Sequence record: PV419677.1
Origin: a phage
DNA length: 64,000 bases
Direction: 5' to 3' (one strand)
Both the position numbers and the translations under genes were made by a program. Below are positions 52,938-55,527 of the stretch, piece after piece (within the stretch, counting starts at the first letter, position 1; each line of letters begins with the position of its first letter). The notes under the pieces are model-generated. The model searched no databases and was not told where the DNA came from. It was given only the letters and a program-made list of their open reading frames with translations.

Positions 52938-53228
52938 TCATTTACAACGCTCCTCTTTTAGCTCAGAACGATAATAACATAACATACCTTTTTGGTCATG
53001 TACATACCTTTTTACATCGTTCAGCCAGATTCTAAATTCTTGCGATGCTTCAAAAGGCATACCAACCCACGGCTGACCTTCAATTACCCTCACTTCCCAT
53101 TGCTGCTTATAATCAGCCAATGCAACAGGCCAATTAGGATGAACTTGGATTGTGGGCTCCGCAACGGGCTTCTGGGCACACGAAACGAGTCCAATAGCCA
53201 AACATACTGCCATGATAGATTTCATCAT
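52938..53228 (-). CDS. Outer-membrane spanin lipoprotein (o-spanin, pseT.2-like)
   Basis: Signal peptide with lipobox LVSC at the N-terminus; 96 aa; start overlaps i-spanin stop. Confidence 0.7.
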   Translation of the reverse strand: MMKSIMAVCLAIGLVSCAQKPVAEPTIQVHPNWPVALADYKQQWEVRVIEGQPWVGMPFEASQEFRIWLNDVKRYVHDQKGMLCYYRSELKEERCK

Positions 53229-53578
53229 TTGGTGAGCTCCTGGAAGTCCTGGGCGAACTTATCAAAAGACTGATTAATCTGTTTTTCAACTAATTTAGGC
53301 TTCGCTGCCACAACCTTAGTACGTTTTGCATCTGCACGGAGTTTATCATTTTCCTTCTGCAGGAGTTCAACATATTCCTGACGCTCCTGGTCAAGGAGAT
53401 TAATTTGATTAATCTGGTCTTTTACTGATTGCAGATTTTTCGCGTTATCTTCTGCAACTTTGGTGACTTCCGCCACCGCCGTCTTGAGATTATCTACTTT
53501 TGCTTTTAGATAGAAACCACTACCAGCAGTTACTACCAGGGCGAGCATAAGCCCTGCAGTGAGATTACTTATTTGCAT
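53225..53578 (-). CDS. Inner-membrane spanin (i-spanin, pseT.3-like)
   Basis: 117 aa; N-terminal TM segment LTAGLMLALVVTAGSGFYL followed by charged coiled-coil. Confidence 0.7.
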   Translation of the reverse strand: MQISNLTAGLMLALVVTAGSGFYLKAKVDNLKTAVAEVTKVAEDNAKNLQSVKDQINQINLLDQERQEYVELLQKENDKLRADAKRTKVVAAKPKLVEKQINQSFDKFAQDFQELTK

Positions 53579-54072
53579 AACTTGATGATTACCTCAACAA
53601 TATCATCCTGGGATAAGCCATTCAGGAGGATGTGATTTGTACTGTCAGATGCTGAAATGCGGAACTGATTACCAACTTCATCCGCCATATCATCCTGGGT
53701 TAACACTGGATGTTTAATTCCCAGGCGGTGTTGAAGTGTCAGGGGTTCAACCACAACATAACAAACACATCCATTGATATGCACATTAGGTTGGGTCTGA
53801 TTGATGAACACTTCTGCATCATATTTAACCAAATGGTTCTTTAAGAAGTCAACCATTTCAGGAACAGATTCATGCAGTGCTTCTTTCCGCTCTTCTGATT
53901 TTTTATCACGATATTCTTTTTGTTTCGCCTTCAACTTTTTGTTAGAGGCGAGTTTTTTCCGCAGGTCAGTCATAAGACCAATTTTCTTGGTCCCTTTATA
54001 GACATAAATTCCGTCATGACGGTCACCATATTCATTGACAATCATTTCATTTGAAATCAGTTGCATATCCAT
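53569..54072 (-). CDS. alc: Alc-like protein, assigned by position and 167-aa length
   Basis: Start trimmed to internal Met (RBS GAGGA), 167 aa; lies between the spanins and rnlA as alc does in T4; sequence identity to T4 Alc not verifiable here. Confidence 0.45.
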   Translation of the reverse strand: MDMQLISNEMIVNEYGDRHDGIYVYKGTKKIGLMTDLRKKLASNKKLKAKQKEYRDKKSEERKEALHESVPEMVDFLKNHLVKYDAEVFINQTQPNVHINGCVCYVVVEPLTLQHRLGIKHPVLTQDDMADEVGNQFRISASDSTNHILLNGLSQDDIVEVIIKLCK

Positions 54073-54085
54073 AATATTTTCCTCA

Positions 54086-54319
54086 TTAGTAGCGGTTGTA
54101 ACCCCGGGGACCAAAAGAGTTGGCACCCAGGCGCTCATCTTTCTTTTTGGCTCTTGCTCTAAACCCAGAATCACCTGTTTGAGCTTTCAGTTCTTTTAAC
54201 AATTTGGCCTTTAGGTCAGTAATGAAACCAATCCGGCGGTCTCCCTTATAGACATAGATTCCATCATTTCTGTCACCATATGCCTTTGTAACTCTGTCAT
54301 TTGTAATTAAGTTTAACAT
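54086..54319 (-). CDS. Small paralog of the N-terminal domain of the alc-like protein
   Basis: 77 aa from Met12 (RBS GAGGA); shares motif AYGDRNDGIYVYKGDRRIGFITDLKAKL with downstream NEYGDRHDGIYVYKGTKKIGLMTDLRKKL. Confidence 0.55.
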   Translation of the reverse strand: MLNLITNDRVTKAYGDRNDGIYVYKGDRRIGFITDLKAKLLKELKAQTGDSGFRARAKKKDERLGANSFGPRGYNRY

Positions 54320-54349
54320 GTTTTGGTCCTCATCAGTAGTTGATGGAAC

Positions 54350-54380
54350 CATTATGTATAGAAAGAAGGGGCTTGTACAC
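54350..54380 (-). promoter_or_regulatory. T4 early-type promoter
   Basis: Minus strand GTGTACAAG then spacer then CATAATGG; -35 sits in terminator hairpin of rnlA. Confidence 0.5.
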
Positions 54381-54390
54381 CCCTTTTTTA

Positions 54391-55527
54391 TTATTCAGGA
54401 AGGATTACTTCCGCCTGGTAGTCTAACGGAATGTAAAGTTTATGATTTTTAAGGAAAACTTTATTGATTTGAGCAATCGTTTGTTCAGTTTCCTGTGGGC
54501 GTTGATAGGTGTTCATTAATACGGAGAACAATCCCGGGTATGGTTTACACAACTCTTGACCTTTAATCGCAAACTCGCGTCGGTCTTTTCCTGCTAACTG
54601 TTTTTGTGCATCAAGCAACAATCCCAGTGTATTGGACAGATAATCCAGATGCGTTGCAGTAAAGGCAGTAACTTTTTCACGAGCATAAGTATCGCCAGTA
54701 AACATGGCAATAACATCATCCGCCCCGCCAGCAACAACAACTTCAAACAGTCGTTCGTTATTATTAATGGAGTCTTTAGTATGATGCAGAGCACAATACC
54801 ATTCTGTTTTCATCTTGAACTTCTGACCACTCGCCAGCTCATAGACGAAACCTTCAATCTCTTTCATGCCACGAACGTTCTCAATGCTCGCTGGGTCATA
54901 TGCTTCAACCAGGAAAGGACGAAGCGCTGCATCTTTGAACAGCTCCTGATAAGGAATATATTCACCCGTTTCATTATGGCGAACGTTCAACAAAATCAAG
55001 TCACGTTCCTGGTAAGGAAGAACAATGCGATTTGTTGGTGCAACATATTCCATATTGCAAGTATATCCAGCTTCAGTGATTTCAGTCACACGGGCTCTGA
55101 ACGCTTCACGATGAGGTTGTTTAAACACCTGCAGAGCTTCAGCAGCTTGTGAGCTTTTGATTGACCCTTTGGATTTAAACGCGATATTAGTCTGGTCCAT
55201 ATAAGTGGAAACCAAACTACCATCAGCTTTTGCAGTAACCAGGACAACTTCATCAAGGTTAAGACCAATAGTCATTGGGTTCTCACCCAGATTAAAGAAT
55301 TTTTCCATTGGACGGGCCGCAATGCGAACTGGACCATTGTCATCCATTTCAAACATAATGCCACGGCACTCCAGCGCATCATCAAGGAGCCAATCACTAT
55401 AGGAAGCATAGTTATAGCTAAAGATGCGGAACTTAGTTTCAAATGGAGAAACAAAATCCGTATAGAAAAACTTACCTTTATCAGATTCGGCGCAAAGCTT
55501 CATTAAGTTATCATATAATTCAATCAT
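54391..55527 (-). CDS. rnlA: RNA ligase 1
   Basis: 378 aa (T4 374); ...RIFSYNYASYSDWLL.DALECRGIMFEMD... and KADGSL motif I match T4 Rnl1. Confidence 0.95.
   Translation of the reverse strand: MIELYDNLMKLCAESDKGKFFYTDFVSPFETKFRIFSYNYASYSDWLLDDALECRGIMFEMDDNGPVRIAARPMEKFFNLGENPMTIGLNLDEVVLVTAKADGSLVSTYMDQTNIAFKSKGSIKSSQAAEALQVFKQPHREAFRARVTEITEAGYTCNMEYVAPTNRIVLPYQERDLILLNVRHNETGEYIPYQELFKDAALRPFLVEAYDPASIENVRGMKEIEGFVYELASGQKFKMKTEWYCALHHTKDSINNNERLFEVVVAGGADDVIAMFTGDTYAREKVTAFTATHLDYLSNTLGLLLDAQKQLAGKDRREFAIKGQELCKPYPGLFSVLMNTYQRPQETEQTIAQINKVFLKNHKLYIPLDYQAEVILPE

Follow-up and report, generated by a model that had tools for sequence, protein, structure and literature searches.

A likely tandem duplication of alc in Gaprivervirus phages and the conserved peptide encoded in its former promoter

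Why would a T4-like phage carry, directly ahead of its gene for the host transcription inhibitor Alc, a second gene that repeats only the N-terminal part of the same protein? This arrangement is found in a 64,000-nucleotide (nt) stretch of phage DNA (sequence record PV419677.1, from now on referred to as the window), which comes from a Gaprivervirus, a genus of T4-like phages. Over the 1.1 kb in question, Escherichia phage vB_EcoM_RZ shares 98.9% identity with the window, and 34 records of the VR7/VR20/SP18 group share 92-99%. Its gene order on the minus strand is nrdB, denA, rnlA, a 77-amino acid (aa) open reading frame (ORF; alcb, 54086..54319 including the stop codon, beginning MLNLITND), a 167-aa ORF (alc, 53569..54072, beginning MDMQLISNEM) and the spanin genes pseT.3 and pseT.2. 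The analysis reported here indicates that alcb is very probably a real, selected protein-coding gene that arose in place through a tandem duplication of about 250 bp, comprising the promoter, the leader with its Shine-Dalgarno sequence and alc codons 1 to ~62.

The 167-aa ORF had been assigned to Alc in an initial annotation of the window based on its length and its position between rnlA and the spanin genes, and this assignment was borne out. The protein has the same length as T4 Alc, is 56% identical to it over 166 residues without gaps, and aligns to positions 1-176 of the 177-position Pfam ALC profile PF17527 (expect value (E) 6.5e-49; 166.4 bits, cut-off 25). The gene occupies the conserved place between rnlA and pseT.3/pseT.2. 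NCBIfam holds no family matching Alc or AlcB, and a search of the Alc sequence against the PDB returned nothing at E <= 1. The full family architecture (~165-170 aa) is present and was modeled by AlphaFold2 with a mean predicted local distance difference test score (pLDDT) of 92: an N-terminal module (N-module, residues 1-33, with a helix at 8-15 and a hairpin at 23-33), a 47-residue basic helix (34-80) and a C-terminal α/β domain (87-166). T4 Alc binds RNA polymerase (RNAP), and the host paf mutations that block it lie at β R368/P372, where the main channel opens (PMC2939025, PMC2988021). In a manner dependent on the paf region of rpoB, it terminates Escherichia coli RNAP on cytosine DNA while sparing modified DNA (PMC2988021, PMC2939025), and its mechanism is otherwise unexplained (PMC2988021).

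The 77-aa ORF is present directly upstream of alc, as initially annotated, and the peptides quoted for the pair proved exact. Its similarity to Alc is far beyond chance. AlcB and the window's Alc share 31 of 64 aligned residues in BLASTP (48%; E 7e-17; Alc residues 1-62), while 28 of 55 are shared with T4 Alc (E 7e-17; residues 1 to ~55). PF17527 recognizes AlcB as well (E 3.4e-10; 40.3 bits, cut-off 25), at profile positions 3-62 of 177 only, and AlcB is thus a partial paralog and not a full family member. All six N-terminal residues that are invariant in the Alc family alignment (I, G, D, G, I, G) are kept. Based on AlphaFold2 and the family alignment, codons 1-32 (54224..54319, minus strand) encode the shared N-module, consisting of a helix and a β-hairpin. 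In the AlphaFold2 model of AlcB, residues 11-40, which cover the N-module and the first turns of the following helix, reach pLDDT values of 89-91 and share their secondary structure with Alc residues 8-33, whereas the tail falls below 50 and is predicted to be disordered. Foldseek comparison of this model with the PDB gave no hit below E 4. Both alignments and the structure prediction of the shared domain thus agree with the initial proposal that the short ORF corresponds to the N-terminus of Alc and lacks its C-terminal two thirds. Its further description as a stand-alone copy of one domain is accurate for the retained module but not for the C-terminal 14-30 residues, which are new and, judged by substitutions, the most constrained part of the protein.

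The existence of the alcb/alc pair is already on record and not new. In Shigella phage SP18 (2010), the genes were named alcb and alca, with alcb (SP18_gp241) described as "similar to N-terminal region of bacteriophage JS98 Alc", the VR7 record lists the same gene as VR7ORF243c (VR7_gp243), and PHROGs contains a dedicated family, phrog_17715, whose 77 profile positions match AlcB at E 9e-54. The public label "inhibitor of host transcription" for AlcB is a transfer by similarity, and other records call the protein hypothetical. A "PRC domain" label found in one GenBank record could not be reproduced by a Pfam search. Literature searches found no paper discussing alcb and no functional study. 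What is new here is the origin of alcb, its takeover of the alc control region, and a strongly selected peptide encoded by former promoter DNA.

The origin of the gene can be read from the DNA surrounding the two start codons. The leader occurs twice on the minus strand: copy 1 (GGTTCCATCAACTACTGATGAGGA; 54327..54350) lies upstream of alcb and corresponds to copy 2 (GGTTACAACCGCTACTAATGAGGA; 54080..54103), which contains the codons for the AlcB C-terminus together with the alcb stop codon and the alc Shine-Dalgarno sequence GAGGA (54080..54084). The two copies are identical at 19 of 24 positions and are located at equal distance from their respective starts; shuffled sequences scored as well in 0 of 3000 and 6 of 2000 cases. 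The 5' coding regions of alcb and alc show 61-63% DNA identity. The AlcB frame exits the alc-derived sequence after codon 63 and then continues for 14 codons through what was formerly promoter and leader, with a stop codon that either adjoins (TAA) or overlaps (TGA) the alc Shine-Dalgarno sequence. The window's promoter element GTGTACA-17-CATAAT precedes alcb, not alc, and agrees with the T4 promoter at 18 positions out of 30 when aligned by hand. In T4, VR5 (Dhakavirus), Enterobacter phage MY742 and the P0005 lineage, rnlA is followed by a promoter and then alc, without any gene between. Because the leaders repeat at the same offset, the 5' DNA is similar and these four lack the insert, duplication in place is favored, and a tandem duplication is the simplest history for alcb. 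Two other relationships between the genes were considered. That the 5' end of alc and alcb have recently undergone gene conversion was rejected, as it does not fit the 61-63% identity or the finding that neither alc allele is nearer to alcb; an N-module identity matrix across lineages, computed with concerted evolution in mind, gave no clear pattern. A frameshift fusion of alcb and alc is not supported: the frames differ by +1 and no slippery site was seen on reading the sequence.

Alc-like matches were identified by tblastn in 797 of 50,697 phage records (833 places), while a full-length match to the 77-aa protein was found only in ~35 Gaprivervirus genomes. The gene is intact in all of these and in three divergent contigs, at a length of 77-78 aa. 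Searching 5.8 billion proteins with the 77-aa sequence yielded one cluster and one variant with a frameshifted tail, and a profile search of 1.84 billion representatives recovered only 33 Alc-family clusters, one of which is a 78-aa protein (P0044) 47% identical to AlcB. It is encoded on a metagenomic contig (L012) in the order rnlA, alcb-like gene, alc. A second divergent lineage (L013/L014), whose Alc is 75% identical to that of the window, likewise shows the rnlA/alcb/alc arrangement, and a lineage with an Alc 63% identical to the window's has no alcb. Scans of IMG/VR and the JGI metagenomes for more alcb lineages returned only VR20, VR25, VR26 and one 97%-identical JGI contig. The synteny check suggested in the initial annotation therefore finds the same gene order throughout Gaprivervirus and in both metagenomic lineages. 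Found only in these, alcb is a rare gene, yet one that predates the Gaprivervirus crown group and has persisted ever since. Two further kinds of short Alc-like ORF were encountered. In a 9.3-kb ENA metagenome contig (P0025), the alcb tail carries a deletion, so that the frame is shifted, NSFGP is replaced and the ORF runs past the alc start; this is either a natural or an assembly variant. Some Tequatrovirus records contain a 63-aa ORF in which an N-terminal piece of Alc is joined to an unrelated tail (P0038 and BFVD A0A3S7GSC5 of Escherichia phage vB_EcoM-G28), which looks like a frameshifted, defective alc and not a paralog.

The pattern of substitutions points to purifying selection on AlcB. 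Among the eight Gaprivervirus sequences used for all within-genus selection figures, the ratio of nonsynonymous to synonymous substitution rates (dN/dS) of alcb is 0.02-0.28, and the most distant pair differs by 12 synonymous (Sd) against 2 nonsynonymous (Nd) changes. In codons 1-46, the variable sites comprise 5 synonymous and 6 nonsynonymous ones. In codons 47-77, the figures are 10 and 0, and 7 of these 10 fall within the 14 codons that were once non-coding DNA. Assuming that ~78% of random changes would be nonsynonymous, the chance of finding no nonsynonymous site is ~6e-7 for the 10 and ~5e-5 for the 7, with the caveat that sites are not strictly independent. Deep comparisons of alcb gave proportions of 0.26-0.37 for nonsynonymous (pN) against 0.54-0.95 for synonymous (pS) differences. 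By these measures, the tail is the most strongly constrained part of the protein. Its C-terminal motif occupies codons 62-77 (ERLGANSFGPRGYNRY; 54089..54136, minus strand), the last 14 of which stem from the duplicated alc promoter/leader, and can be written as R-x-G-x-NSFGP-x3-N-[KR]-[YF]. R63, G65, N67-S68-F69-G70-P71 and N75 are invariant in the two metagenomic lineages, whose AlcB is only 48-51% identical overall, and the protein invariably ends in Y or F; NSFGP is retained in L012 and L013 despite third-position (synonymous) codon differences.

This part of alcb overlaps another possible reading frame. The alc frame is open upstream of the true alc start (54073..54174, minus strand), and public gene calls give Alc proteins of 188-201 aa that overlap alcb (P0001, P0002). 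The extended alc (189 and 201 aa) was rejected: the extension varies freely between clades while the alcb frame is conserved, and it lacks a Shine-Dalgarno sequence. These calls are likely a recurrent mis-annotation. Because the rival frame changes freely between clades (P0001 vs P0002), the constraint acts on the AlcB protein. A longer alcb, beginning at the in-frame ATG at 54352 (88 aa), was likewise rejected, as this codon runs into the -10 element and precedes the inferred transcription start, with no Shine-Dalgarno sequence ahead of it.

Expression signals for alcb are compressed into the short spacer that follows rnlA. A Shine-Dalgarno sequence (GAGGA, 54327..54331) is found 7 nt ahead of the ATG, as initially annotated. 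The early promoter claimed at the same time calls for more discussion. The candidate, a σ70/T4-early-type element on the minus strand at 54351..54379, consists of TGTACA (54379..54374) and CATAAT (54356..54351) separated by 17 nt. Compared with the T4-type early consensus GTTTAC(A/T)-17-TATAAT, the window's GTGTACA-17-CATAAT matches at 9 of 12 positions, a chance-level match: 2.5 kb contain 10 matches of this quality, which is no excess over the 6.9 +/- 2.8 of shuffled sequence. The claim is instead carried by positional homology. In T4, the rnlA stop is directly followed by a consensus-like early promoter (GTTTACA-17-TATAGT, TGT before) and then by the leader and the alc Shine-Dalgarno sequence, VR5 and MY742 are arranged alike, and the elements at the place of the alcb promoter in L012 and L013 read TTTACA/TTTACT-17-TAGTAT/CATAAT. 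The alcb promoter is credible because it is homologous to the T4 promoter and because near-consensus versions exist in L012 and L013. Further, only 3 of the 77 spacer bases shown are variable among eight genomes, against ~30% at synonymous sites. The Alc orthologue is genuine, and the paralog both carries expression signals and is present throughout the genus, so the pairing described in the initial annotation stands.

The alcb leader is predicted to fold into a hairpin (54324..54351, minus strand; minimum free energy -13.2 kcal/mol) in which the Shine-Dalgarno sequence is paired with a 5' arm abutting the -10 element. Its z-score is -3.8, and 0 of 200 shuffles fold as well. Hairpins of like design but differing sequence are present in L012 (z -5.9), L013 (z -7.2), VR5 (z -4.3) and T4 (z -4.6), while the alc leader of the window has no significant RNA structure (z +1.0). 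Since the hairpin hides the Shine-Dalgarno sequence, only transcripts begun at the proximal promoter would expose it. No promoter match was found between alcb and alc in a pattern scan, and for this reason alcb and alc most likely form a co-transcribed early operon. The upstream copy kept the early promoter and the Shine-Dalgarno hairpin, and alcb would in this way have taken over the control region that originally belonged to alc. More broadly, a Shine-Dalgarno hairpin was observed before the first gene after rnlA, be it alcb or alc, in six phage lineages (z -2.1 to -7.2; besides the window, for example L012:1012-1049, L013:2719-2758, L007:1924-1968 and L011 (T4) 1267-1340), always with the 5' arm at or upstream of the -10 element. 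The only Rfam match (Bp1_162; 23 bits, with the gathering score at 50; E 0.48) is sub-threshold and was dismissed as chance.

Just past the rnlA stop, a pattern scan and RNA folding identified a terminator-like GC hairpin (AAGGGG-TGTACA-CCCCTT, followed by a T-rich run; 54366..54385, minus strand), which embeds the -35 element of the alcb promoter and is identical in 8 of 8 Gaprivervirus sequences compared. With A6 on one side and a T-rich run on the other, it looks like a terminator on both strands; the spacers of T4, VR5 and MY742 lack it. Such a hairpin could end rnlA transcripts and also influence promoter use. The upstream neighbor itself, rnlA (RNA ligase 1; 54391..55527, minus strand), is a 378-aa ORF in the homologous place annotated rnlA in SP18, VR7 and RZ. 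Downstream of alc, pseT.3 (i-spanin; 53225..53578, minus strand) is so annotated in SP18 and VR7, and its start overlaps the 3' end of alc by 10 nt. In the 141-kb record of Escherichia phage DCP80 (PQ671644.1), homology to the window stops within pseT.3 and the ORF is cut to 83 aa, reflecting either a deletion or an incomplete assembly.

The alc gene contains a mosaic patch of its own, identified through nucleotide identity and comparison of synonymous divergence (dS). At codons ~9-50 (53923..54048, minus strand), two alleles exist within the genus, a window/VR20 type and an SP18/VR7 type, which share 78-79% of their nucleotides (70% in 60-nt windows) between flanks of 92-100% identity; dS in the patch is 0.6-1.3 vs 0.03-0.08 in the C-terminal part of alc. 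A 65-nt stretch of the window's allele is 87.7% identical to alc of an Enterobacter phage, and the patch therefore looks like the product of recombination.

What AlcB does can be approached through the division of labor suggested by the Alc model. The Alc C-terminal domain is likely the DNA-sensing part, because its predicted fold appears to resemble the double-wing domain of T4 MotA. With DNA sensing assigned to this domain, the N-module is likely the element that docks on RNAP, and AlcB, which retains that module, likely docks where the Alc N-module docks. We hypothesize, tentatively and with a probability that we would set somewhat short of even, that AlcB, built from the Alc N-module, a short helix and a new basic and aromatic tail, would use this module as a docking element on the RNAP elongation complex. 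It would occupy the site of the Alc N-module without bringing a DNA-sensing domain, and would present the tail peptide as its own effector. AlcB would then be an accessory factor or modulator of Alc-dependent host shut-off and not a second terminator.

The roles put forward in the initial annotation, a competitor or regulator of Alc or a protein with a different partner, are reasonable, and three other explanations have to be weighed against RNAP docking. That alcb is a non-functional remnant of the duplication, either a pseudogene fragment or an annotation artefact, might be suspected given that the gene is missing from most Alc-bearing phages and that P0025 carries a damaged tail. This is scarcely credible: the gene is intact in ~35 genomes and three divergent contigs, its Shine-Dalgarno sequence, promoter and leader hairpin are all conserved, and the substitution pattern, indicative of strong purifying selection, effectively refutes it. 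AlcB could also act on Alc itself. Here, the shared N-module and helix would serve as an oligomerization surface, and a hetero-oligomer would either damp Alc, as a dominant-negative "microprotein", or add the tail to it. The shared segment does include the start of the 47-residue helix in the Alc model, the truncation retains one module while losing the putative effector domain, and the genes are adjacent and likely co-transcribed with the alcb stop adjoining or overlapping the alc Shine-Dalgarno sequence, an arrangement that would favor a fixed stoichiometry. This explanation nevertheless seems somewhat unlikely. Oligomerization of Alc is without evidence, Alc helix residues 34-62 are highly charged with few hydrophobic positions, and two very different alc N-module alleles occur beside a near-identical alcb, which is a poor fit to a tight, co-evolving interface. 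Moreover, a purely dominant-negative role leaves the conserved new tail unexplained.

The tail is central to the third explanation, in which AlcB is unrelated to the target of Alc, its N-module is a mere scaffold and the tail binds another partner such as a nucleic acid, an RNAP-associated factor or a defence protein. It is the tail that shows the greatest constraint, that keeps its motif invariant across lineages ~50% identical overall, and that, being basic, aromatic and predicted to be disordered, is typical of short linear motifs. A different partner is still unlikely in our view, as every family-invariant N-module residue was kept after long divergence, which argues that the original contact was retained, and NSFGP matches no known motif, although no systematic motif search was made. 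Docking on RNAP via the N-module, with the tail as effector, is the explanation tentatively preferred here.

A possible reason for the narrow distribution of the gene lies in the DNA of these phages. Gapriverviruses are reported to have kept alc, denA, denB and dCTPase while missing gene 42, which is needed to synthesize hydroxymethylcytosine (PMC8056088, PMC12115623), and the cytosines of VR7 DNA are reportedly modified but non-glycosylated (PMC6326788). In phage RZ (NC_070780.1, 34425..35737), the interval between uvsX and imm/gene 43 contains only four small hypothetical ORFs (42, 35, 176 and 47 aa), in agreement with the published absence of gene 42 despite modified cytosines in the genus. 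Confinement of alcb to the Gaprivervirus clade may be tied to this unusual cytosine modification. The most far-reaching version, in which AlcB is an RNAP-directed early factor whose effector peptide was born de novo and which tunes the discrimination of host and phage DNA by Alc to the unusual DNA of these phages, is speculative and on present evidence improbable.

More than 30 years after its description, termination by Alc on cytosine but not modified DNA is still unexplained, the PDB contains no Alc structure, and the main value of alcb may be the experimental handle that it offers on this mechanism. AlcB represents a natural dissection of Alc in which the N-terminal module alone appears to have been kept by selection. 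Its binding partner, once found, would reveal the role of the N-module in Alc and would also probe the proposed division between N-terminal docking and a MotA-like C-terminal sensor. AlcB may further bear on the cytosine modification of the clade, which is chemically undefined. Independently of function, the locus offers a clean and datable case in which a promoter and leader became a coding peptide under strong selection.

Among characterized systems, the closest is T4 Alc (alc/unf; PF17527; PHROG 1253), to which the 167-aa gene of the window is orthologous, with equal length and an identical position between rnlA and pseT.3. In contrast, T4 and most of its relatives have no second alc-like gene. 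AlcB differs from T4 Alc in lacking the C-terminal half of the long helix as well as the entire C-terminal α/β domain, and carries the new C-terminal motif instead. SP18 alcb, VR7ORF243c and PHROG 17715 encode a protein 96-100% identical to AlcB and represent the same gene. T4 also differs at the modification locus, as β-gt and gene 42 (dCMP hydroxymethylase) occupy the interval filled by the four small ORFs in phage RZ. T4 MotA combines an N-terminal sigma-binding domain with the C-terminal "double-wing" DNA-binding domain. Its apparent likeness to the Alc C-terminal domain is in fold only (9-13% identity), the N-modules of the two proteins are unrelated, and AlcB is without this domain altogether.

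With regard to gene control, the T4 genes e, soc and I-TevI conceal their Shine-Dalgarno sequences in read-through transcripts, and the alcb leader hairpin likewise pairs the Shine-Dalgarno sequence with sequence at or upstream of the -10 element of the proximal promoter. To our knowledge, this device has not been described for alc or alcb. At the level of protein architecture, AlcB resembles microProteins such as the Id proteins and plant LITTLE ZIPPER, being a small partial copy of a regulator in which the interaction module is kept and the effector domain lost. This likeness is a functional analogy only: classical microProteins need no additional peptide, whereas AlcB has gained a conserved new one.
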